Notes: generated by a model not told the origin, from the letters alone. DNA of 64,000 nucleotides from Lachnospiraceae bacterium (GCA_022799355.1 JAAWOG010000010.1:5766-69765), one strand, 5' to 3'; shown: positions 1-17,768, counted from the first letter of the stretch. Program-made: numbers and translations.

Positions 1-156
1 CGGGGAGTTCCTGTTTTAAAATATGAAGACTTAGAGTCAGGGAGTTATGAGGATTTATTACAAACGGTAGATATGATTCCGGCAAAGAAGCTGATTGAAG
101 AAGAGTATTTTAATAAAGAGTTTCTAGGAAAGTGTTGGGGGATAATTTTCGACTGA
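1..156 (+). CDS. 3' end of an upstream CDS (51 codons plus TGA); function unassigned
   Basis: Frame 1 is open from base 1 to TGA at 154-156 (..GVPVLKYEDLESGSYEDLLQTVDMIPAKKLIEEEYFNKEFLGKCWGIIFD*). It is missing from the ORF track only because its start lies outside the window. 51 residues are too few for a family call. Confidence 0.3.
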   Translation, partial: RGVPVLKYEDLESGSYEDLLQTVDMIPAKKLIEEEYFNKEFLGKCWGIIFD

Positions 157-185
157 CTATAGAAATATTAGGATAAAGGACAGAT

Positions 186-1301: not shown

Positions 1302-1309
1302 ATTAGTGT

Positions 1310-2047: not shown

Positions 2048-2092
2048 TAATTGATTTATAGAGATACCTAAAACAATAGGAAGGAAATTATT

Positions 2093-3280
2093 ATGATTAG
2101 AATTACAGCAGTTTTCAATTTTCCATCGCCGACAACAGTCAGATTATTCCAATTAATTGCTAGACAGGAAGACATAGATTTACAAGTATTATTTTGTAAG
2201 AAACCTTTAAATGAAACAAGTGATGGATACTTTTATTCACGAAAAAATATAAGAAGTGAATGGAATGTTCCTCTTCTTACAGGATATAAATATCATTTTT
2301 TGGAAGATCCATTTGATTTTAACCCGTCTAATGTACTGGGAATTATAAATCCTGAAATTAAGAAATATATCTTTTCTAATGAAATGGATATATTGCTGAT
2401 AGGGACAAGTTTTTGGTCCTGGACTACTTGGGCCGCAATTAATGTAGCTAAAAAGAAAGGCATTGCTTTAATTACTAAATGCACTATAGAAACAGAAAAA
2501 AAAAGAAATCTTATTTTAGATATTATCAGAAGGAATGTTGTAAAAAAGTATTTTAAAAATATGACAGCCGGTATATTTGAAACAGAAGGACAAAAGAAAT
2601 TTATGATTTCTCACGGGTTGAAAGAAAAATCTGTGTTTTGGGCACCAAGTGCAGTGAGTAATGAATTTTTTGATGATAGAATAAAGGAACTTAACAGAGA
2701 TGAGATAAGGTCCGAGTTAGGATTGAAAAAAGAAGATACGGTTTTTGTGTTTCTAGCCAATATTATAGAACGAAAAAGACCAAAAGATCTTTTATTGGCA
2801 TATGAGAGATTGAGAAAAGAAAGAAAGAATATATGCCTATTCTATATTGGTGATGGTGATTTAAGAAATAGATTAGAAGAATATGTTGCGAAAATGGCGA
2901 TAGAGAGAGTTTGCTTTTTAGGATTTTTAAATCATCATGAGATGTGTAAATACTTAATGGCAAGTGACGTATTTGTCCTTCCATCGGAAAATGATGCATC
3001 TCCAAAATCATTAAATGAGGCAATGAATTTTTCATTGCCAATAGTTATTACAGATGGAGTAGGCAGTGCATCAGAATTATTAGAGGAAGGAGTTAATGGG
3101 TTTATTTACCATAGAGGGGACATTGATGAATTGGTTAATATTTTGTCTAAAATGGTAGATAATTCTGACATGAGGAGGGAAATGGGTATCGAGAGTAAGA
3201 GACTGGTTGAGAAAAACGGTATAGATAAAGCGATAGATGGATGGAGGGAGGCTGCTAAGTATTGTTTAGATTTGAGGTAA
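2093..3280 (+). CDS. GT-B glycosyltransferase, family 4-like
   Basis: 395 aa, preceded by AGGAAGGA SD. The C-terminal domain carries the GT4 signature region VLPSENDASPKSLNEAMNFSLPIVITDGVGSASELLEEGVNGFIY. Confidence 0.8.
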   Translation: MIRITAVFNFPSPTTVRLFQLIARQEDIDLQVLFCKKPLNETSDGYFYSRKNIRSEWNVPLLTGYKYHFLEDPFDFNPSNVLGIINPEIKKYIFSNEMDILLIGTSFWSWTTWAAINVAKKKGIALITKCTIETEKKRNLILDIIRRNVVKKYFKNMTAGIFETEGQKKFMISHGLKEKSVFWAPSAVSNEFFDDRIKELNRDEIRSELGLKKEDTVFVFLANIIERKRPKDLLLAYERLRKERKNICLFYIGDGDLRNRLEEYVAKMAIERVCFLGFLNHHEMCKYLMASDVFVLPSENDASPKSLNEAMNFSLPIVITDGVGSASELLEEGVNGFIYHRGDIDELVNILSKMVDNSDMRREMGIESKRLVEKNGIDKAIDGWREAAKYCLDLR

Positions 3281-3295
3281 AGGAAATATAAAACA

Positions 3296-3970
3296 ATGCA
3301 ATATAATTTATGGAGAAAAGAAATTAAACATATATATATAAAAGAAAATAAGCTGTTCACAATAGTTTTGTTATGCATCTATATAGGTTTGTGCATTCAA
3401 GTTTCTGGCATTATTGCGAAAATTGTTTGTGGATCATTACTTTTGTTAACTCTTTTCATAAATAAAAAGCGGGAATATATCATTACATTTTATATGTTAC
3501 TTTTTTCAATGATTATGATATTTTGTTCTATTAAATATATACCAGGTTGGGTGGCACGGACACATAATATTTCTACTGACAGTATTTGGGGACGAAGCAG
3601 TGGATTTGGGGATACTTTGATATTTACGTTGATTAAGGATAAGAAATGTATTTTAAAAAAAGACTGTTGGTATTATGAATATATCGATATATTCGCTGAA
3701 GAAGTTACTACAGATGAGGAATATGAAATTATTATAAATCAGGATACTTATTCTGAATTGCAAGAAAGATGCCGCCGGGTGGGATGGATGCATATAGATG
3801 CGGATTTTCTTTTAATAGAAGAAAAGGCACTTCAACGCTTCCGTAATGGAGACGAGGTTTACTTATATGTTGATCCGGAGGGGCTGGCAGAAGCAGATAC
3901 GGTTATTGTTTTAAATGATGAGGAAGGGAATATCTATATTGAGTCAAAATATGAATGGGAGAAGAAATAG
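3296..3970 (+). CDS. Hypothetical membrane-anchored protein (about 3 N-terminal TM segments plus an acidic soluble C-terminal domain)
   Basis: 224-aa ORF in operon context. The N-terminus is hydrophobic (LFTIVLLCIYIGLCIQVSGIIAKIVCGSLLLLTLFI..). I recognise no family. Confidence 0.45.
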   Translation: MQYNLWRKEIKHIYIKENKLFTIVLLCIYIGLCIQVSGIIAKIVCGSLLLLTLFINKKREYIITFYMLLFSMIMIFCSIKYIPGWVARTHNISTDSIWGRSSGFGDTLIFTLIKDKKCILKKDCWYYEYIDIFAEEVTTDEEYEIIINQDTYSELQERCRRVGWMHIDADFLLIEEKALQRFRNGDEVYLYVDPEGLAEADTVIVLNDEEGNIYIESKYEWEKK

Positions 3971-5585
3971 AATTAAATTAAAGAGTGTCTTGTCTATTAT
4001 ATTGTTCATTTTTTCAATAGTTTTTACTATTATTATGAGACAGAGAGATTACGTAGTCGCATTGTCTGAACCATTATATACGGAAGTTTATAAGATCACG
4101 GAACTATTTCAGGTACGGCAGATTATAGCAAGCCTATTTTTTTTCTTTGTGGGATATCTGATTATAACAGTAATTATACCTGAATTGCCAGATATATTTA
4201 GAATGATTTTAGCAATACCAACGTCAATTGTAGTTTGGGGAACGATTTCAATCATTGTACTTTTACTACGGCTTCCTTATACAAAGCAGTTGATGTTTTT
4301 AATACAGGGTATATTAGCAATTGTTTTCATTTATATTCTTGCACGCAGAAAGACTTTGGCATTGAGGCACTTTCTGCAATTTATAATAAGGCTGGCAGTA
4401 GTTTCATCATTTGTAAATATTATTTCAACAGGAATTATCAGATATACAGTAGCATCAGATACGTATTATTATATATATACTTATGGAAGATTGATTGCAA
4501 AAGCGGGAAAATTATCGGCTGAGAGTATGGGGAATCTTCTTGAGACAACAGGACTGATGATGGCAGTAATGGCGAGTTTTGCAGTATTCTGTGGATTTGA
4601 GACAATTCAGATTATCCATTTTATGTTGATATTTTCTTTTTTAGGACTGTTAGTTTATTATTTGTATCATATAATATGTACATATGGAGCGGATAAGAAA
4701 AAGGCGGGAGTAATTGTGGCATTTATTTTAGGATGCGCAATATCACCTCTTTTTTTAATAAGTAATTTGATTATATCACATTCATGGATGATGGTGTTTT
4801 TATTTATATGTTCCTTTTATATGAAAGAATATATAAATACAATAAATTATAATATAAGACAGAAGATTATAGGGATAATGTCTCTGTATTTATTGTGGAT
4901 GTCTTTTTTACGTATAGAGGCAATTATTACAATTCTATTTTTAATTGTTTGTTTTACATATCTGGGTATTTCACGGAGGGAACTATTGATATTAAGTTTT
5001 CCAACATTAGTTATGAATGCTGTTTTTCATATTGAGATGCAATTTTTAATAAGAAGAGCCAATGATCATTTATCATATGGGACTGTGTTTGTTACCCCTA
5101 AGGCGCTCATAATTATTTTTCTGGCTATTATTCTTATGGGAGGCTATATCGTATTTTATAATATAAAGTTATTAAAAATTATGAGAGGACATCTTCCAGT
5201 TATAATAATAGTATCATTGTTAGCAGCAAGTGTTATAATTTGCCTTCCGGATAAGGAACGGACTATCAATAATTTTCATTCCATTTTTTATAATTTGGCG
5301 AATGAAAGGTGGTATTATTTTCCACATTTAGTCGCACTGCTTACTTTAATCATTTTGAAAGGTAAAAAGAATTATGGGTTCTGGGATATGATAACATTCG
5401 GAATGATTTTACTGAATTTTGCGATGTGTATGGGGAGAGTTCAATATCTTCGAGACGGCTGGGGTGACTCTTTCAACAGATATTTGTTGCAGGCGGTTCC
5501 ATTTATGCTTGTTTTTCTGACAGATAATATTGGGGAAATAGTTTATGGATTAGAGAAGGCGGAGCGTGCTAAAACAAGTATTTAG
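3951..5585 (+). CDS. Large polytopic membrane protein (at least 12 hydrophobic segments); candidate polymerase or GT-C-type enzyme, family unknown
   Basis: The ORF track gives 3915..5585. ATG 3951 (MNGRRNRIKLKSVLSIILFIF..) is the more plausible start. The sequence is almost entirely hydrophobic helices and lies in operon context between a GT4 and a GtrA/GT2 module. Confidence 0.55.
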   Translation: MNGRRNRIKLKSVLSIILFIFSIVFTIIMRQRDYVVALSEPLYTEVYKITELFQVRQIIASLFFFFVGYLIITVIIPELPDIFRMILAIPTSIVVWGTISIIVLLLRLPYTKQLMFLIQGILAIVFIYILARRKTLALRHFLQFIIRLAVVSSFVNIISTGIIRYTVASDTYYYIYTYGRLIAKAGKLSAESMGNLLETTGLMMAVMASFAVFCGFETIQIIHFMLIFSFLGLLVYYLYHIICTYGADKKKAGVIVAFILGCAISPLFLISNLIISHSWMMVFLFICSFYMKEYINTINYNIRQKIIGIMSLYLLWMSFLRIEAIITILFLIVCFTYLGISRRELLILSFPTLVMNAVFHIEMQFLIRRANDHLSYGTVFVTPKALIIIFLAIILMGGYIVFYNIKLLKIMRGHLPVIIIVSLLAASVIICLPDKERTINNFHSIFYNLANERWYYFPHLVALLTLIILKGKKNYGFWDMITFGMILLNFAMCMGRVQYLRDGWGDSFNRYLLQAVPFMLVFLTDNIGEIVYGLEKAERAKTSI

Positions 5586-5587
5586 AG

Positions 5588-6331
5588 GTGAATGAAATGA
5601 GTCAAAATCTGTTGGCTGAAAATTTAACCCATTGGGATTATATAGACCGCTATTCTAAGTGGATGTACGATGTTTATTCGGATTACATCGGAAAAAGTGT
5701 GTTTGATGTTGGAGCAGGCATGGGGCGAATGGTTGACTTTTATATCAGAGAAGTGGAAAAAGTGACTGCAACAGATATTTTTCAGGAACAGGTTGACTTT
5801 ATGAATAAGCGTTTTGAGCAATATCCATATTTTCATGCTGAACTTGTAGATATTTTGAAGGATGCCCTGGAAGAATACGAAGGAAAGTTTGACACGGTCC
5901 TCTGCATTAATGTTTTGGAACATCTTTCGGATGACTATAAAGCGGTAGGAAATATGAAGTATATTCTGCGGGACGGGGGGGTATTGATCCTTATGGTTCC
6001 TGCATTTCAAAAGCTGTATTGCCGGCTCGACAGCGCTGTTAACCACTATAGAAGATATGATCCGGGGCGCCTTGTGGATATTGCTGAAAAAAACAGGATG
6101 GAGATAATAAGGCATCACTATTTTAATATATTGGGGATTATTCCATACTGGCTAAAAGGAAAAAGCAGGAAGGGACAGGCAGGGAGTTTCAGTTTATCGT
6201 TGAATGAGTCCAATTCGAGGATATATAATTTTGCCGCAGGCATTATGGAACCAATAGAAAAGCGCTTTCCGCCCGGGATCGGCTTGACGGAGGTTATCAT
6301 TTTGAGAAAGCAGTATGAAAATCACAATTAG
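5588..6331 (+). CDS. Class I SAM-dependent methyltransferase
   Basis: SAM-binding motif I VFDVGAGMGR, then acidic TD and the post-I/II pattern VLCINVLEHL..GGVLILMVP. Probable start is ATG 5597 after an AGAGG SD. The gene contains a G7 tract at 5975-5981. Confidence 0.8.
   Translation: MNEMSQNLLAENLTHWDYIDRYSKWMYDVYSDYIGKSVFDVGAGMGRMVDFYIREVEKVTATDIFQEQVDFMNKRFEQYPYFHAELVDILKDALEEYEGKFDTVLCINVLEHLSDDYKAVGNMKYILRDGGVLILMVPAFQKLYCRLDSAVNHYRRYDPGRLVDIAEKNRMEIIRHHYFNILGIIPYWLKGKSRKGQAGSFSLSLNESNSRIYNFAAGIMEPIEKRFPPGIGLTEVIILRKQYENHN
5975..5981 (+). repeat. G7 homopolymer inside methyltransferase 5588..6331 (context GAC-GGGGGGG-TA)
   Basis: Codons 130-132 read GGG GGG GTA (Gly-Gly-Val). The tract is in frame. 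Confidence 0.9.
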
Positions 6332-6719
6332 CAGAGAACAAAGGGATTACATAATATGGGGAGCGGCATCTGCCGTATTAAACATAGGGGGTTTTCAACT
6401 CCTTATTTTTATGGGGGCAGATTATAAAACGGCAAATATCATAACCCTGATTGCCAACAGGTTTTTTTGTTATATAACAAATAAAATATTTGTGTTTCGG
6501 ACAAAGTGTGATGGCTGGCAGCAGCTTATAAAAGAAATAGTGCTGTTTATTCTTGCAAGATCCGTGACGCTTCTGATGGATTATTTTGGTGTAGTATTGC
6601 TGGTTGAAGTAATAGGAATAAAGTCTTTTATAAGCAAAGCGGTTCTGATGGTTTTGGTGGTGCTGACAAATTATCTGTCAGGCAAATGGTTCGTATTTAA
6701 AAAAGACAGAGCAAAATAG
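6315..6719 (+). CDS. GtrA-family small membrane protein (putative polyprenol-P-sugar flippase component)
   Basis: 134 aa with 4 hydrophobic helices. It has a GtrA-like N-terminus (YIIWGAASAVLNIGGFQLLIF) and C-terminus (VLTNYLSGKWFVFKK). It lies directly upstream of a polyprenol-phosphate-type GT2. Confidence 0.75.
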   Translation: MKITISREQRDYIIWGAASAVLNIGGFQLLIFMGADYKTANIITLIANRFFCYITNKIFVFRTKCDGWQQLIKEIVLFILARSVTLLMDYFGVVLLVEVIGIKSFISKAVLMVLVVLTNYLSGKWFVFKKDRAK

Positions 6720-6735
6720 GAAAGAAGGTATTGGA

Positions 6736-7701
6736 GTGAAACTGATTATTCAGATTCCATGTTATAACGAAGCGGAAACATTAAAGATTGCCCTGGATGC
6801 TTTGCCAAGGCATATAGAGGGAATAGATAGTATCGAGTACCTTATCATCAATGACGGGAGTAAGGACGGGACCGTAGAGATAGCACGGGAGTGGGGAGTC
6901 CATTATGTGGTGAATTTCAAACAAAATAAGGGGTTGGCAAGGGGATTTATGGCAGGTCTGGATGCCTGCTGCAGGAATGGAGCGGATATCATTGTAAATA
7001 CGGATGCTGATAACCAGTATTGTGCTGATGATATAGAAAAATTAGTGAAGCCGATATTGGATGGGGAGTATGATATTGTGATTGGTGAAAGGCCCATAGA
7101 TGATACGGTACATTTTTCTTTGGTGAAAAAGAAACTGCAGCATTTAGGGAGCTGGGCGGTACGGAAAGCGTCGGCAACGGACATACCGGATGCACCAAGT
7201 GGTTTCAGGGCGTACAGCAGGGAGGCGGCACTGAAGATTAATGTGATAAATGAGTATACATATACGCTTGAGACGATTATCCAGGCGGGGAGGGATAAAA
7301 TAGCAATGACATCCGTTCCGGTCAGGACAAATGAAGAATTGAGAAAATCCCGCCTTTTCCGCAGCATGGGAAGCTATGTGAGAAGGAGCGGGGGGGTAAT
7401 TGTGCGTTCCTTTGTTATGTATAAACCCTTAAAGTTTTTTATCATTTCCGGTCTGATACCATTTACCATGGGAGCCCTGATCAGTATGAGGTTCCTTTTT
7501 TATTATGTAAAAGGATTGGGGGGAGGGCACATACAGTCACTGATCCTTGCGGCGGTATTGATGATGCTGGGGTGGCAGACCATTGTAGCAGGTTTCCAGG
7601 CGGACATCATTGCCGCGAACAGAAAACTTTTACAGGATGTACAATACAGGATAAAAAAACTGGAGATAGGAAATGGGGATAATGGGAAAGAAGGAATATA
7701 A
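6736..7701 (+). CDS. GT2 polyprenol-phosphate glycosyltransferase (DPM1/GtrB/CsbB-like) with C-terminal TM helices
   Basis: IQIPCYNEAETL near the N-terminus, INDGSKDGT, the NTDADNQY acidic motif, and two C-terminal TM helices (FFIISGLIPFTMGALI.., LILAAVLMMLGWQTIVAGF). GTG start after GAAAGAAGG. The gene contains a G7 tract at 7390-7396. Confidence 0.85.
   Translation: MKLIIQIPCYNEAETLKIALDALPRHIEGIDSIEYLIINDGSKDGTVEIAREWGVHYVVNFKQNKGLARGFMAGLDACCRNGADIIVNTDADNQYCADDIEKLVKPILDGEYDIVIGERPIDDTVHFSLVKKKLQHLGSWAVRKASATDIPDAPSGFRAYSREAALKINVINEYTYTLETIIQAGRDKIAMTSVPVRTNEELRKSRLFRSMGSYVRRSGGVIVRSFVMYKPLKFFIISGLIPFTMGALISMRFLFYYVKGLGGGHIQSLILAAVLMMLGWQTIVAGFQADIIAANRKLLQDVQYRIKKLEIGNGDNGKEGI
7390..7396 (+). 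repeat. G7 homopolymer inside GT2 6736..7701 (context AGC-GGGGGGG-TA)
   Basis: Codons 219-221 read GGG GGG GTA (Gly-Gly-Val). The tract is in frame, just before the C-terminal TM helices. Confidence 0.9.
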
Positions 7702-8317
7702 GGAGGCCTGCCAGCCGGAAGGAAATTATTTTGATAAATACGGTTCTAATAATCCTATTGTAAAAAGACTGATGAAAGGGTATTTTGACTCATTCGGGAA
7801 ACTGCTGAGTGAATCCGGAATTTCCCGGGGGGGGTATATCCTGGAAGCCGGATGCGGGGAAGGGCATGTGGCAGCGTTTATGCAGAAGAAGGTAGAGGGT
7901 GTTTTGATAGATGCTTTTGATATTTCTGAAAAGGTTATCAGGGAAGCGGAGGAGGAATATTCAGGGATACATTTTTTTGTGCATAATATATATGACGCAC
8001 AGGAGGGGAAGAAGTATGGCCTTATAGTGTGCAGTGAAGTCTTAGAGCATATGGAACGGCCGCAGGATGCGGTCAGAAGTCTTATGAAAAGCGGAGAGAA
8101 GTTTATTTTCAGTGTACCCCATGAACCGGTCTGGAGGATCATGAATATGGCAAGGGGGAAATATATCAGGAATTTCGGGAATACACCGGGGCATATACAG
8201 CATTTCACTAAGAAAAGCTTTTACAGGATGTTGATGGAATGCGAACTTGAGGTGATCCGATATGAGGAGCCGTTGCCATGGCTTATGGTGTATTGCCGGA
8301 AAATCAATGAAAGTTAG
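7673..8317 (+). CDS. Class I SAM-dependent methyltransferase (second copy, unrelated in sequence to 5588..6331)
   Basis: Motif I ILEAGCGEGH, then DAFD and LIVCSEVLEHM. It overlaps the end of the GT2 gene by 29 nt. The gene contains a G8 tract at 7827-7834, immediately before motif I. Confidence 0.8.
   Translation: MGIMGKKEYKEACQPEGNYFDKYGSNNPIVKRLMKGYFDSFGKLLSESGISRGGYILEAGCGEGHVAAFMQKKVEGVLIDAFDISEKVIREAEEEYSGIHFFVHNIYDAQEGKKYGLIVCSEVLEHMERPQDAVRSLMKSGEKFIFSVPHEPVWRIMNMARGKYIRNFGNTPGHIQHFTKKSFYRMLMECELEVIRYEEPLPWLMVYCRKINES
7827..7834 (+). repeat. G8 homopolymer inside methyltransferase 7673..8317 (context CCC-GGGGGGGG-TA)
   Basis: Codons 52-55 read CGG GGG GGG TAT (Arg-Gly-Gly-Tyr). The tract is in frame, upstream of SAM motif I. 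Confidence 0.9.
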
Positions 8318-8346
8318 TATTTGAAGATGTTTGCCAGAAATGATTA

Positions 8347-8958
8347 TTGGGAGGTAAGGTGAAGGTGAATAATAGTTTTCTTTCGTATGAAGAGTTAGAA
8401 AATATTGGTTTTAAGCGGCTCGGGGGGGTAAAAGACAGAAAGGATATGGATATTTTGATCAGCCGCAAAGCAAGCATTTATAGCCCGGAAAAGATATCGA
8501 TAGGAAATCATGTAAGAATTGATGATTTTTGTATTTTAAGCGGTTGTGTAGATATTGGCAGTTATGTTCACATTGCCGCGTATAGTGCGTTATATGGTGG
8601 GGAGGATGGGATTTATATTAGTGACTTTGCAAATCTTTCATCTCGTGTAACGATATATAGCGTAAATGATGATTACTCAGGTGAGACATTAACAAATCCG
8701 ATGATTTGTGATGAGTATAAAAATGTACATAGTGAAGCGGTAAAGATTGAGAAACATGTTATTATTGGTTCAACAAGTGTAATTCTTCCGGGAGTAAACT
8801 TGGCAGAGGGAAGTGCGTTTGGGAGTTTTTCATTTATAAATCATGATTCGGAAGCCTGGAGTATTAATGCAGGTATACCATTTCAAAAAATATCAGATAG
8901 AAAACGGGAGGTTCTGGTGTGGGAAAGAAAATTTGTAAACAGAAATCAGGAAAGGTGA
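8347..8958 (+). CDS. Left-handed beta-helix (hexapeptide-repeat) O-acetyltransferase
   Basis: Repeated [LIV]-G-x4 hexapeptide pattern (ISIGNHVRIDDFCILSGCVDIGSYVHIAAYSALYGG...KIEKHVIIGSTSVILPGVNLAEGSAFGSFS). The true start is probably GTG 8359 or 8365 after a GGGAGG SD. The gene contains a G7 tract at 8422-8428. Confidence 0.75.
   Translation: MGGKVKVNNSFLSYEELENIGFKRLGGVKDRKDMDILISRKASIYSPEKISIGNHVRIDDFCILSGCVDIGSYVHIAAYSALYGGEDGIYISDFANLSSRVTIYSVNDDYSGETLTNPMICDEYKNVHSEAVKIEKHVIIGSTSVILPGVNLAEGSAFGSFSFINHDSEAWSINAGIPFQKISDRKREVLVWERKFVNRNQER
8422..8428 (+). repeat. G7 homopolymer inside acetyltransferase 8347..8958 (context CTC-GGGGGGG-TA)
   Basis: Codons 26-28 read GGG GGG GTA (Gly-Gly-Val). 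The tract is in frame, near the 5' end of the gene. Confidence 0.9.
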
Positions 8959-8970
8959 AAATATAATATC

Positions 8971-10311
8971 ATGGAAGAAAACAAATTTACTGATTTGTAT
9001 GACAAACTGGTTCATAGAAAGGGAAGCCTGGCTATAGTGGGGTTGGGATATGTCGGAATGCCTTTAGCTGTTGCTTTTGCAGAGAAAAGAATAAATATCA
9101 TCGGATTTGATAACAATAGGACAAAGATTGATTTATATCGTTCCGGCATAGATCCGACAAATGAGGTGGGCGATGAAACAATCAGAAAAACATCAGTGCA
9201 TTTTACATCAAATGAGGACGAGCTGAAAAAAGCTCGTTTTATTATTGTAGCGGTCCCCACACCGGTAAATACAGATCATACGCCGAATCTTGCACCGGTT
9301 GAGGGCGCAAGCGTAGTTGTGGGGCGCAACCTTCGGTGCGGAACGATTGTTGTTTATGAATCAACAGTTTATCCCGGGGTAACAGAAGATGTATGTATTC
9401 CAATTCTGGAAAAAGAATCAGGGCTTAAATGTGGTATTGATTTTAAAGTCGGCTATAGCCCGGAACGTATAAATCCGGGTGATAAAATACATACACTTCC
9501 CAATATTCGGAAAATTGTTTCCGGAATGGATGAGGAGAGCCTGGAGATTATTGGAAAAATCTATGATCTCGTAATAGAAGTTGGGACATTCCCGGTATCA
9601 TCCATTAAAACTGCGGAGGCTGTAAAGGTTGTGGAAAACAGTCAAAGAGACATAAATATTGCCTTTATGAATGAATTGGCAATGGTGTTTGACAGAATGG
9701 GAATAGATACAAATGAAGTCGTTGACGGAATGAATACCAAGTGGAATGCGCTTGGGTTCAGGCCCGGTCTGGTTGGTGGCCATTGTATTGGCGTTGATCC
9801 ATATTATTTTACTTATGAAGCCGAGAAATTAGGATATCACAGTCAGATTATTCTAAACGGGCGTATCGTAAATGATTCTATGGGGACATATGTAGCTGAT
9901 GCGGCAATACGGAAAATGATTGAGGCGGGGCAGGCACCCAAAAAGAGCAAGGTTGCAATTTTGGGATTGACATTTAAAGAGAATTGTCCGGATACGAGAA
10001 ACAGTAAGGTAGATGATATCGTTAAACGTCTTAATACATATGGTATAGTTCCATTAATTGTAGATCCCTGGGCATCGAAAAGGGAGGCAGAGGCGGAATA
10101 TGGTGTTAAACTTACGAATTTTGAGCAGGTAAAAGATGTTGACTGTGTAATTATCGCAGTGGCTCACAATGAGTTTAAGGAAATGAGCCTGGAGGATTTG
10201 AAAGGGCTATACCGAAAGTCAAATGATTGTGAAAAAGTACTGATTGACGTAAAGGGAATATATGATGTTGGAGAATTAGAAGCGAGTGGTATCGGATATT
10301 GGCGGTTGTAG
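8971..10311 (+). CDS. Nucleotide-sugar 6-dehydrogenase (UDP-N-acetylhexosamine dehydrogenase, TviB/WbpO/CapL-like)
   Basis: 446 aa. N-terminal Rossmann motif LAIVGLGYVGMPLAVAFA, catalytic-Cys region GLVGGHCIGVDPYY, and a C-terminal UDP-binding domain (VAILGLTFKENCPDTRNSK). Confidence 0.85.
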   Translation: MEENKFTDLYDKLVHRKGSLAIVGLGYVGMPLAVAFAEKRINIIGFDNNRTKIDLYRSGIDPTNEVGDETIRKTSVHFTSNEDELKKARFIIVAVPTPVNTDHTPNLAPVEGASVVVGRNLRCGTIVVYESTVYPGVTEDVCIPILEKESGLKCGIDFKVGYSPERINPGDKIHTLPNIRKIVSGMDEESLEIIGKIYDLVIEVGTFPVSSIKTAEAVKVVENSQRDINIAFMNELAMVFDRMGIDTNEVVDGMNTKWNALGFRPGLVGGHCIGVDPYYFTYEAEKLGYHSQIILNGRIVNDSMGTYVADAAIRKMIEAGQAPKKSKVAILGLTFKENCPDTRNSKVDDIVKRLNTYGIVPLIVDPWASKREAEAEYGVKLTNFEQVKDVDCVIIAVAHNEFKEMSLEDLKGLYRKSNDCEKVLIDVKGIYDVGELEASGIGYWRL

Positions 10312-10344
10312 GTTGAAAGTTTATCAGTTTAGAGGAGAATAAAC

Positions 10345-11391
10345 ATGGATACACCATTTAAAAACAAAACACTTTTAATTACTGGTGGTACAGGTTCTTT
10401 TGGGCATACTGTTTTGAAACATTTTTTAAATACGGATATAGGAGAAATTCGTATTTTTTCCCGGGATGAAAAAAAACAGGACGATATGCGCCATGAACTG
10501 CAGGCTAATTATCCCAAAGAGGCAACCAAGGTCAAATTTTATATCGGCAATGTCAGGAATCAGCAATCGGTTCATGATGCAATGGTAGGAGTAGATTATA
10601 TTTTTCATGCAGCAGCATTAAAGCAGGTGCCTTCATGTGAATTCTTCCCTATGGAGGCTGTAGAAACAAATGTAATTGGTACAAATAATGTATTGCACGC
10701 GGCTATAGAAGAAAAGGTAAAGAGAGTGGTATGCTTGTCGACTGATAAAGCGGCGTATCCAATCAATGCAATGGGGACATCAAAAGCTATGATGGAGCAT
10801 GTGGCAAGGGCAAACGCAAGAGTGGCGGCGGAGAGGGGGGATACGGTGATCTGCTGTACAAGATACGGGAATGTGATGTGCTCAAGGGGCTCAGTAATCC
10901 CTCTTTTTATTGAGCAGATTAAAGCAGGTAACGCAATTACGATTACAAATCCTGATATGACAAGATTTTTGATGAATCTGGACGAAGCCGTTGATCTTGT
11001 TAAATTTGCTTTTGAACATGCGGAATCAGGAGATATTTTTATCCAGAAATCAGATGCCTGTACTATTGGAATATTAGCGGAAGCTGTCAAAAGGCTTTTT
11101 GGTGATACCGGTATTAATATTATAGGGACCAGACATGGAGAAAAGTTATATGAAACATTGATGACAAAAGAAGAACGGCTTCGTTCCGAAGATATGGGGG
11201 ATTATTATCGAGTTTTTGCGGATAATCGAACACTGAACTATGATAAGTATTTTGTGAAAGGAGAAGTTACAACAGAGGCAGAGGAGGCATATACTTCTCA
11301 TAATACGAATCAACTTGATGTGGAAGAAACCATTGCAAAAATTATGACGACTGATTATGTAAAAGAAGCGTTTAAGGTGGTGAAGCAATGA
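10345..11391 (+). CDS. fnlA: UDP-GlcNAc 4,6-dehydratase/5-epimerase (FnlA/CapE type), first step of UDP-L-FucNAc synthesis
   Basis: 348 aa, AGAGGAG SD. KTLLITGGTGSFGHTVLKHFL, FHAAALKQVPSCEF, CLSTDKAAYPINAMGTSKAMME, TRYGNVMCSRGSVIPLF. A CapF-type gene follows with an ATGA overlap. Confidence 0.85.
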   Translation: MDTPFKNKTLLITGGTGSFGHTVLKHFLNTDIGEIRIFSRDEKKQDDMRHELQANYPKEATKVKFYIGNVRNQQSVHDAMVGVDYIFHAAALKQVPSCEFFPMEAVETNVIGTNNVLHAAIEEKVKRVVCLSTDKAAYPINAMGTSKAMMEHVARANARVAAERGDTVICCTRYGNVMCSRGSVIPLFIEQIKAGNAITITNPDMTRFLMNLDEAVDLVKFAFEHAESGDIFIQKSDACTIGILAEAVKRLFGDTGINIIGTRHGEKLYETLMTKEERLRSEDMGDYYRVFADNRTLNYDKYFVKGEVTTEAEEAYTSHNTNQLDVEETIAKIMTTDYVKEAFKVVKQ

Positions 11392-12668
11392 AAGTATTGG
11401 TAACAGGAAGTAATGGCTTTGTGGGGCGGAATCTTGTATGGAATCTGAAGGAAATACGAGATGGGAAGAACCGAACCAGACCTAATTTGACAATTACTGA
11501 GATATATGGTTTTGATATTGACAGTGATCAGACAGCATTGGATGAGGCGTGCAAACGGGTAGATTTTGTATTTAATCTTGCCGGAGTTAACCGACCAAAA
11601 GAAATATCTGAGTTTATAGAGGGAAATTATGGATTTGCGGACAGGCTCCTGGAGACATTAAAAAAACATCATAATAACTGTCCGGTAATGCTGGCCAGTT
11701 CAGCGCAGGCATCTCTGGCCGGAAGGTTTGCTGATTCTGAATATGGAAAAAGCAAGCTGGCAGGAGAGGAATTGTTTTTTAAATATGCGGAAGAAACGGG
11801 TTCTAAAGTTTTGATATATCGTTTCCCAAATTTGTTTGGAAAGTGGTGCAAGCCAAATTATAATTCGGCGGTGGCAACTTTTTGTCATGCAGTGGCAAAT
11901 GATATGGAATATACAGTGAACGATCCGAGGACGGAGTTGGAACTCCTTTATATTGATGATGTAATAAATGAGATGCTTGATGCGTTAGAGGGGAAAGAGC
12001 ATCGCTGTGACTATACAAAAGATGAACTTCATAATGGACTGGAGGCACAGCCATCATCAACTGGTCGTTATTGCTATGTGCCGATTACGCATAACGCAAC
12101 ATTGGGAGAAATAGTTAATTTATTAAATATATTTAAATCCATGCCGGAAAATCTTGTCATGCCGGAAATACCAGAGGAATCGTTTGCTAAAAAGCTTTAT
12201 TCTACATATCTTTCTTATTTGCCGGTATCTAAAATATCTTATCATTTTAAGTCAAATGTGGATAGCCGCGGGAATTTTACGGAACTTATAAGGACATTGA
12301 ATTGTGGACAGGTGAGTATTAATGTGGCAAAACCAGGGGTGACAAGAGGGCAGCACTGGCATAACAGCAAGTGGGAAATTTTTATAGTAGTCTCCGGCCA
12401 TGGACTGATTCAGCAACGTCGTATCGGGATTGATCCTGAAACAAAAGAAGGATATCCTATGATTGAATTTGAGGTTACAGGAGAGCAAATGAAAGCGGTA
12501 CAGATGCTTCCGGGATATACCCATAATATTATTAATCTGTCAAAAACAGAGAATCTTGTAACAGTTATGTGGGCAAATGAAATGTTTGATGAAAATAATC
12601 CGGATACATTTTATGAACCAGTGATTCCGGGAGAGGACAGATTATCGGCGGAAAAGGGGAATGTATGA
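11388..12668 (+). CDS. fnlB: FnlB/CapF-type bifunctional reductase/epimerase (N-terminal SDR plus C-terminal cupin)
   Basis: 426 aa. MKVLVTGSNGFVGRNL Rossmann motif, YGKSK catalytic pair, and a C-terminal cupin block (DSRGNFTELIR...GVTRGQHWHNSKWEIFIVVSGHG). ATGA coupling occurs at both ends. Confidence 0.8.
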   Translation: MKVLVTGSNGFVGRNLVWNLKEIRDGKNRTRPNLTITEIYGFDIDSDQTALDEACKRVDFVFNLAGVNRPKEISEFIEGNYGFADRLLETLKKHHNNCPVMLASSAQASLAGRFADSEYGKSKLAGEELFFKYAEETGSKVLIYRFPNLFGKWCKPNYNSAVATFCHAVANDMEYTVNDPRTELELLYIDDVINEMLDALEGKEHRCDYTKDELHNGLEAQPSSTGRYCYVPITHNATLGEIVNLLNIFKSMPENLVMPEIPEESFAKKLYSTYLSYLPVSKISYHFKSNVDSRGNFTELIRTLNCGQVSINVAKPGVTRGQHWHNSKWEIFIVVSGHGLIQQRRIGIDPETKEGYPMIEFEVTGEQMKAVQMLPGYTHNIINLSKTENLVTVMWANEMFDENNPDTFYEPVIPGEDRLSAEKGNV

Positions 12669-14652
12669 CATTGTGTAAACCGCTTGCGGATATGAAAAAG
12701 AAAGCAGCTAGTAAAAAAACGATAGTTATTATATGCGTAGTATGGTTAGTTTTGCAGTATATTTTGGTTTTTTATAAAAGTCCACTGGTTTTTATATCGG
12801 ATGAAGTGACATACAAAAGGATTGCATATAATTTATTCCGATCCGAACCAATTGAGTCATTGCATTATCCTTTCCTTTATCCGGCAATAATATCAATGGG
12901 ATTTTTTGGGAAAGAGCATTTTTATGAGGCAATGTTGGGTATAAATATATTGTTTAAAGGAATGTGCCTCATTATCATATGGAGATTGTTGCAAAAAGAG
13001 ACAGATAGAAGAAAAGCAACGTATATATTGGTTCTCATAGCTTTTTCGCCAATATATTTTTTGTATTCCAGATTACTGATGGCAGAGAATCTGGCATGTC
13101 CGCTATTAATTATAAATGTATTGTATCACGAGCACTACAGAAAAGTATTGCTTAGTGGGCACGGGGGGGTAAAACATCCTGCACTGTTTGTGCAGCACTG
13201 TTGTCATTAGGCTTGTTTTGGACAAAGTATTTGATGTTAGTAACACTGCCGGTATTCTGTTTGTTTTGGAGTGTGGAATGTTTTAAAGGGACATCAGGAC
13301 TGAGAAGCAGGATGATGAAGTTTTTTAAGGTTGCAATTTTTTATACCTTTATTGTCATATTTTGTATTGTTATATATGCGTATATCTATGCGGTGAAAAT
13401 AAATCAACCTGTTTCTTTAGGGCTTATTATCGATACAATGGGATTTGGAATTGGATCGGGACCATCTAATAATGGATATGCGATATTGGTGGAGTGGAAA
13501 TGGATAATAAGTTATGTGCTATATGCATTGCTTGGGGCGGCGCCTATAATTGCAGGTATGATTTCAAATGTAAAGTATAATTTACTTAAAGAGAATAAAG
13601 ATATTTTTTGGTTAAGTATTCTGCTTATCATAGTATTAATTTATATTTCGGCCAGACATTCTACTTATATATATTATAATGCAGGTGGGAAAATGATGAA
13701 TTTATGTGGCAGATATGTGGCATATACTACACCACTTTTGGCGATATGCTGGTTCCGGACATGTGATTTGTCAGAAAGGTATATTTTAAAGGTTGCAAGA
13801 AAAATATATGCAGGCATTACAGGTATCGTTATTGTGTGGGGGGCCTATGAATTATTATATGTATTCTCACCAGGAGTAGAACAATCTTCGGGATGGCTGA
13901 CGGGAATCAGAGCGGCAGATAATGCAGGCTTTACGAATCTGGGAATAGTTTTTTGCTGGATGTATTGCGTGGGAATTTGGGTTTTAATTTGTACTGAGCG
14001 AATAATAGGAATATTAATTATTTGTATATTGTTGTCTATTAATAGTTTTTCAGCAGTGCTGACCTGTGAAAAATATCATAGTGCTGCTTTTGTATATTCT
14101 GAATTAATGAAGGAACTTTGTGATAGGGAGGGCAATGGAACGATATCCGTATTATGTACTGAGTTTGCAGATTATGACCGTATGTATCAATTTAAGTGGT
14201 TTTACAATATTGATGGTAAAACGGAGAGGATACGGATAGTCCGTGCTCCAATAGAATTAATTGATCCATGTCGGTTGGAACAGAAGTGTGATGAATATTT
14301 ATTTCTGATTAAGACAGAATTGGTAGATTCGGAAATATATCAGAAGAATATTGATTTAATTACAGGTGATTTAAATAAAGAGTATGTTCTGTTGGAATGG
14401 GACAAGAATAGATTCTATAGAGATGAAAGCAAGTTGGATGTATTGTTTACAGAAGAAAATCAGGTTAGATTGTCGTGTGAAGGTAATAACCAGTTAATGT
14501 TCATTTGTGGCAGGTATTTGCTTCCAGTAGAATATGAGGCAGAAGGAAATCAGGTTTTTGTAGCAGTAGATAAAAAATATTTTGAGGATGATATAGTATG
14601 TGCTTATGATTTAAGTGAATTGAGTTTGAGGGAAGTCGTTTTGGAAAGATAA
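12665..14652 (+). pseudogene. Frameshifted GT-C (PMT_2/ArnT-like) polytopic glycosyltransferase, split into 12665..13210 and 13201..14652 just after a G7 tract
   Basis: The N-terminal fragment has the GT-C first-loop acidic motif (FISDEVTYKRIAYNLF ... HYPFLYP). The downstream frame is open back through the G7 tract at 13163-13169. One extra G would read ..HGGGKTSCTVCAALLSLGLFWTKYLMLV.. and give one ORF of about 663 aa. Confidence 0.7.
13163..13169 (+). repeat. G7 homopolymer at the frameshift point of the split GT-C gene (context CAC-GGGGGGG-TA)
   Basis: The upstream frame reads CAC GGG GGG GTA and reaches a stop at 13208-13210. The downstream ORF frame is open through the tract, so G8 would restore one ORF. 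Confidence 0.9.
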
Positions 14653-14668
14653 ATAGGGAAAGGGAGGT

Positions 14669-15883
14669 GTGGAGGATTTTATGAAAGATATGAAATATCC
14701 GTTGTGGAAAGACAATGGAAGATTGAAATTGCTTATTATTGTTGGTACGAGACCGGAGATCATACGCCTTGCACCAACAATTGCAAAGGCCAGGGAGTAT
14801 TTTGATTGTTTACTGGTACATACAGGCCAGAATTATGATTATAACCTTAATGGAGTATTTTTTAAGAATCTGGGATTATCTGATCCGGATATTTTGCTTA
14901 ATGTAGTTGGAGATGACTTGGGTGAAACGATAGGGAATATTTTAAGTGAATCTTATAAACTTATGTCAGAGCTGAAACCGGAGGCACTACTGATTCTTGG
15001 AGATACTAATTCCTGTTTATCTGCGATAGCGGCAAAACGCCTTCATATACCTATTTTTCATATGGAGGCAGGAAATCGTTGTAAGGATGAGTGTCTGCCG
15101 GAGGAGACGAACAGGAGGATTGTGGATATCATTTCAGATGTGAATCTTGCTTATTCTGAACATGCACGGCGCTATCTCATGGAATGCGGACTGCCAAAGG
15201 AGAGGACTTACGTTACAGGTTCCCCAATGGCAGAGGTATTAAGCAATAATCTGAAGGCGATTATGAATTCTGATGTACATAACAGAATTTCGGAAGAAAT
15301 AGACAAAGAGATTAAAACAGGCAAATACATTCTTTTATCGGCGCATCGAGAGGAAAATATTGATACGGAGGAAAATTTTTTATCTCTTTTTCAGGGAATT
15401 AACGTTATGGCGGAAAAGTATAACATTCCGATTCTGTATTCCTGTCACCCGAGAAGTAGGAAAAGGCTTGTGCAGATGGAAGAAGCAGGAAAATTTAAGC
15501 TACATCCGGAAGTAATAGCTCATGAGCCGCTGGGATTCCATGACTATAATTATCTGCAGATGAATGCTTTTTGTGTGGTTTCGGACAGCGGAACGCTGCC
15601 GGAGGAAAGCAGCTTTTTTACATCAATTGGCAAACCATTCCCGGCCGTATGTATCAGGACGAGTACCGAGAGACCGGAGGCGTTGGATAAAGGATGTTTT
15701 ATTCTATCCGGAATTGATACGGAAGGACTGCTGCAGTCAGTAGAAATGGCGGTAGAGATGAATAGGGACGGGGATTACGGAATACCTGTACCGGATTATA
15801 TGGATGTTAATGTCAGTATGAAGGTTATAAGGATTATCCAGTCCTATACCAGGGTGGTTAATAAAGTGGTGTGGAGGAAATAA
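14669..15883 (+). CDS. fnlC: Non-hydrolysing UDP-HexNAc 2-epimerase (FnlC/CapG type)
   Basis: 404 aa. LKLLIIVGTRPEIIRLAP, HTGQNYDYNL, LILGDTNS, FHMEAGNRC, and the SDSGTLPEES signature of WecB-family epimerases. The likely start is ATG 14681 after GGAGGTGTGGAGG. Confidence 0.85.
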   Translation: MEDFMKDMKYPLWKDNGRLKLLIIVGTRPEIIRLAPTIAKAREYFDCLLVHTGQNYDYNLNGVFFKNLGLSDPDILLNVVGDDLGETIGNILSESYKLMSELKPEALLILGDTNSCLSAIAAKRLHIPIFHMEAGNRCKDECLPEETNRRIVDIISDVNLAYSEHARRYLMECGLPKERTYVTGSPMAEVLSNNLKAIMNSDVHNRISEEIDKEIKTGKYILLSAHREENIDTEENFLSLFQGINVMAEKYNIPILYSCHPRSRKRLVQMEEAGKFKLHPEVIAHEPLGFHDYNYLQMNAFCVVSDSGTLPEESSFFTSIGKPFPAVCIRTSTERPEALDKGCFILSGIDTEGLLQSVEMAVEMNRDGDYGIPVPDYMDVNVSMKVIRIIQSYTRVVNKVVWRK

Positions 15884-15976
15884 AAATTCTCATTATTCTG
15901 TTGTTCAAATAAGAAAACCATGATAAACTAAGCTAGTAATTCTAATTTTTCATATAAGAATTGCAAATGAAAAAAG

Positions 15977-17407
15977 ATGGAGTATAAATATATGAAAGAG
16001 AGAGAAATTAGCATAATCGATTTATTAGTGGAAATTTTATTGCACTGGAGAATGTTTATTATTTGGATGCTGATTGGAGCAGTCCTATTAGGTGCATATA
16101 GTTTCAATCGTTCACGAAGCGCTATAAAAAGCCAGCAGGCACAGACGGTGGAAATGGAGCGGGAGCCGGAAGAATGGCTGTCCGAAGAGGAAATAGAAAA
16201 TGTAAATTATGTAATGGCTTATGAAAAAGCATATCAGGAAAAAAAGGCTTATCAGGAGGAATTGCTGCTGATGCAGGTGGATCATAACAACATCAGCAAG
16301 GCAGAAGCAACTATTGCTATCGATGCAGGAGAGCGGCAGAAAAGCTATGATATAGAAAAAGTCTATGAAGATATTATATTAAGTGGGGAACTCGTTGATA
16401 AAGTGGCGGAAAATACTGATATGAAAGCGGCGGATATTAGCGAGATGCTTTTTCTATGCAGGGAGGGAACCGTAAGCTACAGTTTAGAAGGGGCGGAAGG
16501 GATCAGTACGTTCAGGATTGCGGCGATGCATAGTGACGAGGCTCAAAGCAAAAATATGTTGGATGCGGTTATTGCATTTCTGAAAGAAAAGCAGCCAGAT
16601 TTGGAAAAGAGCCTTGGGGAGCATGAAATTACGATAGTAAATCAGTCTTTTGGCATAGCGCCTGATACATTGATTGCAGAGAAACAAAAAAAGTTATTGG
16701 ATGAAAGAGCCAGCATGAAAAGGATACTTTCTGATACGATAGAAAATTTGTCTGATGTGGAGAAACAATATTATAATCTCTTGTCAAATGACGAAGAATC
16801 TGAGGAAAATGCAGTGGTGGAGGTGGTGTCAGCACCAGGAGTGAGTGTGAAATATGTTCTTCTCGGAGCGGTTATGGCGGCATTCATTTATGCGTTTATT
16901 CTTTTCATGATTTATATTTTTAATACTAAAATACGTGCTACGGATAGTTTGCAGGAATTATATGACATTCCTCAATTGGGTATGGTTCCATCTGAAAAGA
17001 ATGATAAAAAGGTATTTGGGTTTATAGATAAATGGATTATATCTCTGAGAAATCATAATAAACGGCAGTTTACATCAGAGGAAGCATTGGAACTTGCCTC
17101 TGTTGCGGCTAAAATGGCTGCCGGAAAGGAAACGCTTCATGAGCTAAGCCTGATGGGCAGTGGATTAAAAGAGCACTCATTTGATATATGTGAAAAAATT
17201 AAAGAACGTTTGAAAAAAGATGGCATTCAAGTAAATATTTTGAACAATGTGCTATATGATGCTCAAATGATGGGAGAATTGGAGAAGGCGAAAGGCGTAA
17301 TTCTGGTAGAGAGTGCCAATATAACATTATATAACGAGATTTTTGAAGAATTGGAACTTCTGAAAAGACAAGGGATTAAAGTTTTGGGCGGAATTTTAGT
17401 GGGATAG
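15977..17407 (+). CDS. Wzz/CpsC-family chain-length regulator fused to a degenerate BY-kinase-like C-terminal domain
   Basis: The N-terminal Wzz pattern (EISIIDLLVEILLHWRMFIIWMLIGAVLLGAY) plus a second TM (VKYVLLGAVMAAFIYAFILFMIYIF) bracket a coiled periplasm-like domain. The C-terminal 150 aa follow the CpsD/CapB layout (..LSLMGSGLKEHSF...GVILVESANIT...GIKVLGGILVG), but the Walker A position reads GSGLKEHS instead of G-x-GKS/T. Confidence 0.7.
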   Translation: MEYKYMKEREISIIDLLVEILLHWRMFIIWMLIGAVLLGAYSFNRSRSAIKSQQAQTVEMEREPEEWLSEEEIENVNYVMAYEKAYQEKKAYQEELLLMQVDHNNISKAEATIAIDAGERQKSYDIEKVYEDIILSGELVDKVAENTDMKAADISEMLFLCREGTVSYSLEGAEGISTFRIAAMHSDEAQSKNMLDAVIAFLKEKQPDLEKSLGEHEITIVNQSFGIAPDTLIAEKQKKLLDERASMKRILSDTIENLSDVEKQYYNLLSNDEESEENAVVEVVSAPGVSVKYVLLGAVMAAFIYAFILFMIYIFNTKIRATDSLQELYDIPQLGMVPSEKNDKKVFGFIDKWIISLRNHNKRQFTSEEALELASVAAKMAAGKETLHELSLMGSGLKEHSFDICEKIKERLKKDGIQVNILNNVLYDAQMMGELEKAKGVILVESANITLYNEIFEELELLKRQGIKVLGGILVG

Positions 17408-17430
17408 AATAAATCTGTGATGAGGAAAAA

Positions 17431-17462
17431 CCTGCAGGGCTGGACGGCTTTGCAGGTTTTTT
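17431..17462 (+). terminator. Rho-independent terminator closing the AT-rich operon
   Basis: AAAAACCTGCAG-ggctggacggct-TTGCAGGTTTTTTG. The stem is CCTGCA (17431-17436) with TGCAGG (17451-17456), followed by a T6 run, 24 nt after the Wzz stop codon. The A-run upstream and T-run downstream suggest it could act in both directions. Confidence 0.8.
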
Positions 17463-17569
17463 GCTTTTATTATTGCCGCAGTGATTATCTGAAATTTGGA
17501 ATGAGATCGTGTGATACGGATAATTTTAAGAAACTATTGCTGTTTTTATGAGATATTGGCCCGTTTCCC

Positions 17570-17598
17570 TTGCACTGTTATCCTTTGCATGTTATGAT
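17570..17598 (+). promoter_or_regulatory. Sigma-A-like promoter candidate (TTGCAC-17 nt-TATGAT)
   Basis: -35 TTGCAC at 17570-17575, a 17-nt spacer, and -10 TATGAT at 17593-17598. It lies about 170 nt upstream of the degraded ATPase ORFs. Confidence 0.4.
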
Positions 17599-17768
17599 GA
17601 ATAACATGAATTTATATAAAAGAGACGAAAAGTGGCCGCCGCTGCCAGTTCGGAACAAGCAGGAAGAGCAGTAAAATGGTGTGTATTCTAGACAGGGAGG
17701 GGCAGGAGATGTTCCTTTCTACAAGTTGCTTTTATGTTGAGTAAGAGATTACTGTCCTTGTATGGGAT

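Follow-up and report, generated by a model that had tools for sequence, protein, structure and literature searches.

Length-variable poly-G tracts in a glycan-modification locus of an uncultured Lachnospiraceae bacterium: candidate contingency loci

A string of glycan-modification genes with five G tracts

The window analysed here is a 64,000-nucleotide stretch of DNA from an uncultured Lachnospiraceae bacterium (GCA_022799355.1, JAAWOG010000010.1:5766-69765; positions are counted from its first letter). Between positions 5588 and 14652 it contains a string of genes predicted to act in glycan modification, five of which carry a run of seven or eight guanines (G7 or G8) inside the reading frame. 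These tracts are likely to be slipped-strand contingency (phase-variable) loci. This interpretation, proposed in an earlier reading of the window made from the DNA alone (the sequence-only reading), is now backed by population data, as all five tracts vary in length within an otherwise identical locus.

The first of the five genes, MT1 (5588..6331, + strand, like all genes and tracts described below), encodes a class I S-adenosylmethionine (SAM) methyltransferase of 247 amino acids (aa) with matches to Pfam Methyltransf_11/12/25. Its G7 tract (5975-5981) supplies codons 130-132 (GGG GGG GTA), lies within the L-x-x-G-G motif with which the methyltransferase domain ends, and keeps the gene in frame (ON). 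The next gene, for a GtrA-family membrane protein (6315..6719; Pfam GtrA_DPMS_TM, E 1.7e-17), has no tract in the window copy. Directly 3′ of it lies GT2 (6736..7701; Pfam Glycos_transf_2, E 1e-25), encoding a GtrB/DPMS-like glycosyltransferase of 321 aa with a C-terminal membrane segment. GT2 is ON at G7, and its tract (7390-7396, codons 219-221) lies between the catalytic domain and the hydrophobic helices at the C-terminus. MT2 (7673..8317; Pfam Methyltransf_23, E 2.7e-17) encodes a second class I SAM methyltransferase, of 214 aa, which is ON at G8; the tract (7827-7834, codons 52-54, CGG GGG GGG TAT) is found just 5′ of SAM-binding motif I.

The fourth tract gene, AcT (8347..8958), encodes a left-handed β-helix acyltransferase (Pfam Hexapep) of 203 aa when read from a TTG start, and is ON at G7. 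The tract (8422-8428, codons 26-28) lies inside a 7-residue insertion that is absent from the structure PDB 3vbi, to which AcT aligns with an E-value of 2.5e-56. Since this alignment begins at residue 9, ahead of the tract, the sequence 5′ of the tract is coding, and a true start codon downstream of the tract could be ruled out. An exact-protein look-up of AcT from the TTG start gave no match, because gene callers choose other starts. PDB 3vbi carries the depositor name 'galactoside O-acetyltransferase', and we take it to be the Bacillus cereus sugar N-acyltransferase AntD; AcT, a close relative, may therefore be an N-acyltransferase acting on an amino sugar and not an O-acetyltransferase.

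The fifth tract gene, for a large membrane protein assigned as a GT-C-fold glycosyltransferase (12665..14652), is frameshifted in the window and appears as two open reading frames (ORFs), 12665-13210 and 13201-14652. Its G7 tract (13163-13169) falls at codon 167 of 662, in a loop that is variable among homologues, and the frame runs into a stop at 13208-13210, 38 nt past the tract. Adding one G joins both ORFs into a continuous frame of 662 aa, i.e., the gene is ON at G8 and out of frame (OFF) in the window. By sequence, the product gave only a Pfam PMT_2 match below threshold, and the GT-C label, which had been based on this match, was therefore examined at the structural level. An AlphaFold model for which 11 homologues were used (pLDDT 78.5, pTM 0.78) matched ArnT best among PDB entries (5ezm, E 9e-7, TM 0.46-0.56), followed by STT3, PglB, Pmt4 and ALG12, all of which have the GT-C fold. 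A F-I-S-D-E motif near the N-terminus (residues 43-47) is conserved among homologues. The modelled architecture thus supports the assignment of the split gene as a GT-C-fold glycosyltransferase.

The genes for the GtrA-family protein and GT2 are adjacent, the GT-C gene belongs to the same string of genes at a distance of 5 kb downstream, and the trio is also present in orthologous loci. This co-occurrence supports a three-part side-chain glycosylation module with predicted lipid and sugar substrates, in which GT2 and GT-C would have the GtrA-family protein as their putative flippase.

All five tracts share one sequence context, with C directly 5′ and TA directly 3′ (C-Gn-TA), and each is on the coding strand. 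Codon phase 0 applies to four of them, which read NNC GGG GGG GTA (Gly-Gly-Val), while the MT2 tract is read as Arg-Gly-Gly-Tyr. Apart from these five, no G or C run longer than 6 exists in the window, where the next longest are six G6 runs and a C run of 5. Our scan of the window thus matches exactly the positions, context and strand given in the sequence-only reading and bears out its claim that longer runs are lacking elsewhere. Pfam and structure matches likewise uphold its gene identities (two methyltransferases, a GT2, an acetyl- or acyltransferase and a GT-C), and the frames agree with its account of a Gly-Gly-(Val/Tyr) reading, four ON genes and one OFF gene that a +1 slip restores. 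When alleles from G5 to G11 were constructed in silico, every third length was ON in all five genes, and both wrong frames met a stop 0-22 codons 3′ of the tract. Each tract is therefore a homopolymer within a reading frame whose change in length shifts that frame, as is characteristic of contingency loci.

Tract lengths in metagenome assemblies

Contigs carrying the locus were found by exact-protein look-up with neighbouring tract-free genes and with MT2, and were obtained from 27 metagenome samples (Logan, ENA and JGI) that represent at least eight accession series. Runs with the locus include SRR25119203, SRR25119225, SRR25119237, SRR11195276, SRR11195277, SRR11195283, SRR11195287, SRR11195290, SRR11195291, SRR11792748, SRR11792753, SRR23275257, SRR23275261, SRR23275290, SRR35286950, SRR31560079 and SRR15730558. 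Compared with the window, 22 of the 27 samples show zero substitutions over a summed 194 kb, and the remaining five show 1-71 substitutions. Within window positions 1-17600, no indel was detected outside the five tracts in any of the 27 samples, and the identical surroundings of the variable tracts span 10-17 kb.

The tracts themselves differ in length. The MT1 tract was G7 in 16 samples and G8 in one, and the GT2 tract G7 in 13 and G8 in seven. For MT2, G7 was found in four samples, G8 in 12 (a count that is inflated, as ten contigs had been retrieved with the intact MT2 protein), G9 in two and G10 in two. The AcT tract was G7 in nine, G8 in eight and G9 in two samples, while the GT-C tract was G7 in nine and G8 in five. 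ON and OFF alleles of every tract gene occur in a zero-substitution background. Hence, near-identical genomes are polymorphic in the length of the tracts and not in the flanking DNA, which is what contingency loci would show. A single invariant length at each site, named in the sequence-only reading as contrary evidence, was not encountered when assemblies are taken as a proxy: all five sites are polymorphic.

Independent gene calls in other assemblies are split precisely in the gene whose tract is off-length. MT1 is divided into 148+112 aa in ERZ12802778, where its tract is G8, and GT2 into 229+99 aa in the G8 samples. Where its tract is G7, G9 or G10, MT2 is found as 73+137/149 or 82+145/149 aa, and an off-length AcT is called as 41+170 aa. 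Conversely, the intact 662-aa GT-C with a G8 tract is present in five of 14 samples (L011, L024, L025, L145 and L148), while the NCBI copy of the metagenome-assembled genome (MAG) annotates the C-terminal GT-C fragment as a separate protein.

Differences of this kind could in principle stem from sequencing or assembly, with miscalled G homopolymers accounting both for the length differences and for the split GT-C gene. Homopolymers are the commonest place for indel errors, and several of the ENA contigs have low coverage (2.9-10x by contig names). However, the differences are confined to G runs of at least 7 nt: length is invariant in the control runs, each covered by up to 16 contigs, which comprise 22 runs of A or T with 7-9 nt as well as two G6 runs (7518 and 10835). 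Moreover, the same alleles recur across samples of one study and across assemblers (Logan, SPAdes, MEGAHIT-style ENA contigs and JGI). SRR25119225 and SRR25119237, for example, share the alleles 7-8-10-8, and SRR11792748 and SRR11792753 share G7 in MT2; this concordance within accession series argues against random error. Orthologous tracts in related species, described below, behave alike. We consider an artefactual origin highly improbable. For GT-C, the possibility raised in the sequence-only reading that the tract at 13163 is really G8 and misread in the consensus did not materialise. The split GT-C in the window is no consensus error but the OFF phase, one of two alleles that are both common, because G7 was assembled independently in nine samples and G8 in five.

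Across 17 assemblies that cover four of the sites, ten distinct haplotypes were found, and all four ON/OFF combinations were seen for the pairs GT2-MT2, GT2-AcT and MT2-AcT. Haplotypes and combinations of this number, arising without substitutions, imply repeated length changes or recombination. Relative to substitutions, tracts change roughly >10^4-fold faster per site, a figure that is a relative bound only.

The G runs could alternatively be slippery sites for ribosomal frameshifting or transcriptional slippage, with OFF alleles still expressed and DNA length of minor importance. A GGG GGG G sequence would let tRNA-Gly re-pair in the -1 frame, and the Gn-1 allele places a stop 0-1 codons past the run in four of the five genes, which could stimulate slippage. 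Yet the alleles that are seen (G8, G9 and G10) put no stop at the run, and the observed variation in DNA length suffices to account for the split genes. No stimulatory structure was found, although no search was aimed at one. Such recoding is a very unlikely explanation of the tracts, and at most it would make the OFF states leaky.

The frameshifts might also reflect ordinary gene decay at chance G runs, which would be non-adaptive hot spots in horizontally acquired, low-GC DNA. In agreement with decay, most assemblies have at least one gene OFF, and GT2 and GT-C are both ON in only one of nine assemblies that span both. On the other hand, decay is a one-way process, whereas ON and OFF alleles persist here in all combinations on a zero-substitution background. 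In addition, no OFF allele carries a second inactivating lesion; other indels are absent and the number of substitutions is zero.

Enrichment, flanking bases and conservation of the tracts

The chance explanation also makes a statement about how often G runs should occur. The + strand of the window is G-rich (27% G, 16% C), and composition models of order 0-3 were used to calculate the expected number of runs of at least G7. Between 5.5 and 14.7 kb, five such runs are observed versus 0.5-1.8 expected, while in the remaining 55 kb none is observed versus 3-10 expected. The statement of the sequence-only reading that fewer than one G7 would be expected holds for zero- and second-order models (0.5 and 0.7) and fails for first- and third-order models (1.3-1.8). 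The run-length spectrum differs between the two parts of the window: the counts of G3 to G8 runs are bimodal inside the 5.5-14.7 kb region (85, 28, 4, 3, 4 and 1) and fall steeply outside it (608, 199, 50, 3, 0 and 0). Runs of at least G7 are significantly more frequent among runs of at least G3 in the region than in the rest (Fisher test, p = 3e-5), and within the window they are thus over-represented in the glycan-modification genes, as is typical of contingency loci. Codon usage gives the same picture. Gly-Gly pairs are encoded as GGG-GGG in five of 13 cases inside the region, whereas all 81 pairs outside it avoid this combination, even though GGG accounts for 27.5% of Gly codons. The spectrum and the codon counts together show that long G runs are generally avoided and are concentrated in the locus, which is difficult to reconcile with chance hot spots. 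In their favour, the locus is poorer in GC (31-42%) than the remaining sequence of the window, loci of this kind have a fast turnover, and a sixth G7 further upstream, in a different flanking context, is invariant in four contigs.

The bases that flank long G runs were surveyed in the window and 85 related loci (1.1 Mb, with orthologous duplicates partly counted). This set contains 30 runs of at least G7, all on the gene strand, and no C run of at least 7. The base 3′ of the run is T in 20 of the 30 cases, and the dinucleotide is TA in 16; for runs of at least G8, T follows in 10/12 and TA in 9/12. The baseline 3′ of G4-G6 runs in the survey is 18% for T and 5.6% for TA, corresponding to binomial p values of 6e-9 and 7e-13, respectively, with some orthologous duplicates included. 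In the window, TA follows 5.9% of the G4-G6 runs and all five tracts (p ~7e-7). A 5′ C was also considered as a general rule and rejected: it precedes all five tracts in the window, while elsewhere a pyrimidine is found in 24/30 cases against a baseline of 69% (p = 0.14). The 3′ bias could possibly reflect quick termination of one wrong frame, easier realignment of the strands beside weak base pairs, or protection of the run end from transitions.

For most of the tracts, the encoded glycines do not appear to be required by the protein. At the GT2 tract site, 80 homologues with 64-74% identity have K/R-S-[MVSAI]-[LVST]-[TV]-I and never Gly-Gly, and distant homologues of GT2, MT2 and GT-C mostly lack Gly-Gly at the tract sites. 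The GT-C loop differs among homologues in both length and sequence, and G-G is also found there in several that share 50-55% identity. A requirement of the protein for Gly-Gly was therefore ruled out for GT2, MT2, AcT and GT-C by alignments of homologues or structures. MT1 is different. Class I methyltransferase domains end in a conserved L-x-x-G-G motif, and since the MT1 glycines coincide with it, only the choice of codons is unusual in this gene. Judged from the alignments, Gly-Gly at the GT2, AcT and GT-C tracts appears to be derived and placed at tolerant sites, namely a non-conserved position in GT2 and inserted or variable loops in AcT and GT-C, and this placement speaks against chance hot spots.

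Of the 120 protein clusters closest to GT2, about 30, at identities of 77-83%, show S/G-G-G-V at the tract site. The DNA of four such orthologous loci of other species (L115, L125, L131 and L135), picked by the protein motif only, was examined, and G7 was found at the orthologous GT2 codons in all four (five of five including the window), at 77-82% amino-acid identity. The 4-fold synonymous sites of these orthologues are only 29-39% identical, i.e., saturated, so that preservation of the G7 requires selection on the DNA run itself. In L131, G8 is also present at the orthologous MT1 (G8-TA) and MT2 sites. The orthologue check suggested in the sequence-only reading thus came out in its favour. 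Length variation extends to these relatives. L132 differs from L131 by two substitutions and has a G7 tract with a split gene at MT2, the tract in the GtrA orthologue differs by one G between L135 (G8) and L136 (G7), and an MT1-like gene is split at G6 in L125. In more distant loci (GT2 identity of 65-73%), runs of G7-G11 are found in GT2, methyltransferase, Acyl_transf_3 and DUF6798 genes, several of them out of frame. The phenomenon thus extends beyond a single strain. At NCBI, proteins identical to the dehydrogenase, dehydratase and ABC transporter of the window are assigned to a 'Lachnospiraceae bacterium' MAG, which agrees with a placement in Clostridia. A more distant member of the 90%-identity cluster of this ABC transporter is from 'bacterium 1XD8-76', a mouse-gut isolate, and a mouse-gut origin of the locus would be a guess. 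One GT2 homologue, at 75% identity, belongs to Hungatella; no isolate genome with the locus was present in the collections searched, and a scan of genome contigs with MT2 gave as its only match a protein of 36% identity in an unrelated MAG. Retention of the GT2 G7 despite saturated synonymous sites is hard to explain by hot spots and gene decay, an account that we regard as unlikely overall.

Proposed switching, known systems and neighbouring regions

If the tracts are contingency loci, nascent and template strands would misalign within the G run at replication, and one G would be gained or lost. The resulting shift of frame would lead to an early stop and turn the gene OFF, until a further change in length restores the ON state. 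Each of the five switches would operate on its own, and their targets would be decoration enzymes of a capsule or cell-wall polysaccharide, i.e., two predicted O/N-methyltransferases, an acyltransferase, and the GT2 and GT-C of the GtrA/GT2/GT-C module. Five independent switches could therefore generate up to 32 surface glycoforms in a clonal population, from which phage, secretory IgA or other selection would enrich the surviving glycoform. We infer the slippage step, a high per-generation rate and mixtures of alleles within populations, and likewise the phenotypic effect, the glycan chemistry and the agent of selection.

Several points speak against contingency switching and were weighed against the evidence above. 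Tract lengths were taken from assembled contigs, not from reads, and the G8 count of MT2 is biased as stated. Zero substitutions over 11-17 kb are compatible with decades of separation. No allele shorter than G7 was seen across the samples, and the MT1 tract, the least variable, differs in only one of 17 samples. Contig ends at a tract, a weak indicator, were seen only in L005, which ends inside the AcT tract, and in L010, which ends 9 nt past. What the tract genes do to the glycan is a prediction throughout. Mismatch repair is to be expected in Lachnospiraceae, and G7-G8 is short compared with the classic tracts of Campylobacter (G8-G13) or Neisseria (G8-G17); here G7-G8 is the modal ON length.

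By analogy, the mechanism would be the same as that of the Campylobacter and Neisseria contingency loci. In Campylobacter jejuni, coding-strand G runs are likewise located in clustered methyltransferase and glycosyltransferase genes for capsule, lipooligosaccharide (LOS) and flagellar glycosylation, and independent +/-1 G changes, mainly of single units, switch them ON or OFF to give combinatorial glycoforms. C. jejuni, however, is an epsilonproteobacterial pathogen that lacks mismatch repair, while the bacterium described here is a gut commensal of the Gram-positive type. A 3′ T/TA bias, which is strong in the loci studied here, is not known to have been described for Campylobacter. In Neisseria gonorrhoeae and N. 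meningitidis, poly-G tracts are found in the frames of the glycosyltransferase genes lgtA, lgtC, lgtD and pgtA (PMC2192423, PMC2193922). As in the window, several tracts per locus switch a surface glycan, but the neisserial glycan is that of LOS or pilin in a Gram-negative mucosal pathogen, and the GtrA/GT2/GT-C module is not involved.

The predicted module itself resembles the gtrABC systems of Salmonella and Shigella, which glucosylate the O-antigen, are phase variable and are linked to phage resistance. These systems also combine a flippase-like GtrA, a GT2 that loads polyprenol phosphate, and a GT-C-fold transferase that acts outside the membrane. They differ in that an epigenetic Dam/OxyR promoter switch controls the whole operon, while in the window separate tracts hit GT2 and GT-C.

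Among commensals, Gardnerella provides a near example. Another is the pilus G tract of Bifidobacterium breve (PMC9187656), a gut bacterium in which replication slippage in an intragenic G run gives ON/OFF switching; B. breve is an actinobacterium with single pilus loci, in contrast to the five-gene glycan set of tracts (phasome) proposed here. Work on surface variation in gut commensals has so far centred on DNA inversions, in Bacteroidales and C. difficile, and for these groups a 2025 review lists invertible elements only (PMC11868660). The capsule promoters of Bacteroides and the switches of C. difficile share with the tracts a stochastic and reversible variation of the surface in gut anaerobes; recombinases there invert promoters and affect whole loci, whereas frameshifts in single decoration genes are predicted here. 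A full-text literature search, of incomplete coverage and hence not proof, found no report of phase variation by simple sequence repeats in Lachnospiraceae or other Clostridia, in line with the remark in the sequence-only reading that the mechanism is not established in Clostridia.

The uncultured bacterium and several related species appear to use a poly-G mechanism on at least five glycan-decoration genes. If confirmed, this would mean that strain heterogeneity affecting phage adsorption and IgA recognition is predictable from sequence in an abundant gut family, and that many 'frameshifted pseudogenes' in MAGs of Clostridia are OFF phases rather than errors or decay. Tract lengths would then be simple markers of selection in vivo that can be read from existing metagenomes, and the 3′ T/TA bias would be a new clue to what makes a short G run switchable. 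A wider proposal is that poly-G phasomes are a general strategy of Lachnospiraceae, kept by selection, with tracts at orthologous codons and a mechanistic 3′ T/TA rule. This is put forward tentatively, and we are inclined to doubt it more than to accept it. If true, the 3′ T/TA could serve fast termination in the wrong frame or promote strand realignment, and Lachnospiraceae poly-G phasomes would join the invertible promoters of Bacteroides as a second major means of varying cell surfaces in the gut microbiota.

Several further observations concern the tract genes and their surroundings. The sixth G7 is found about 2.5 kb upstream of window base 1 (L030, 1174-1180), in the gene of a third SAM methyltransferase (259 aa), where it is read in frame as W-G-G-K. 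Its flanks are those of T-G7-CA, and its length is G7 in each of the four contigs with coverage. In L053, two GT2 genes meet at a pair of G9 runs (10579-10587 and 10671-10679) that are 92 nt apart; the second run, located 9 codons inside the downstream gene, is out of frame in the L053 assembly. Most Logan contigs, with at least eight samples represented, end or start at window positions 10950-10977, inside a Polysacc_synt_2 (CapD/FnlA-like) gene, for a reason unrelated to the tracts and probably at a k-mer that is shared with another genome in those samples.

Downstream of the glycan locus, window positions 17600-19100 contain short ORFs with weak matches to ATPase_2 and BrxC_BrxD, and strains differ in this part. 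L022 (from ~16250) and L025 (from ~6690), which are 0.45-0.55% diverged, have intact BrxC/BrxD-like genes and a DEAD/ResIII helicase here, and from these gene contents the region looks like a variable defence island. No Rfam family was found in the window. A second glycan region, GC-richer and without a long G run, extends over positions 33000-62000 and encodes a LIC_10190-family membrane protein, a PseC-type aminotransferase, a heptose-type nucleotidyltransferase/phosphatase and a PglK-like ABC transporter. In L118, L120 and L121, a paired +C/-A indel with a spacing of 13 nt (L115 positions 12845 and 12858) is present at sites other than homopolymers of at least 6 nt. Further downstream there, a gene with a RelA_SpoT domain is either whole (340 aa) or split (54+280 aa), depending on the strain, in a related species.

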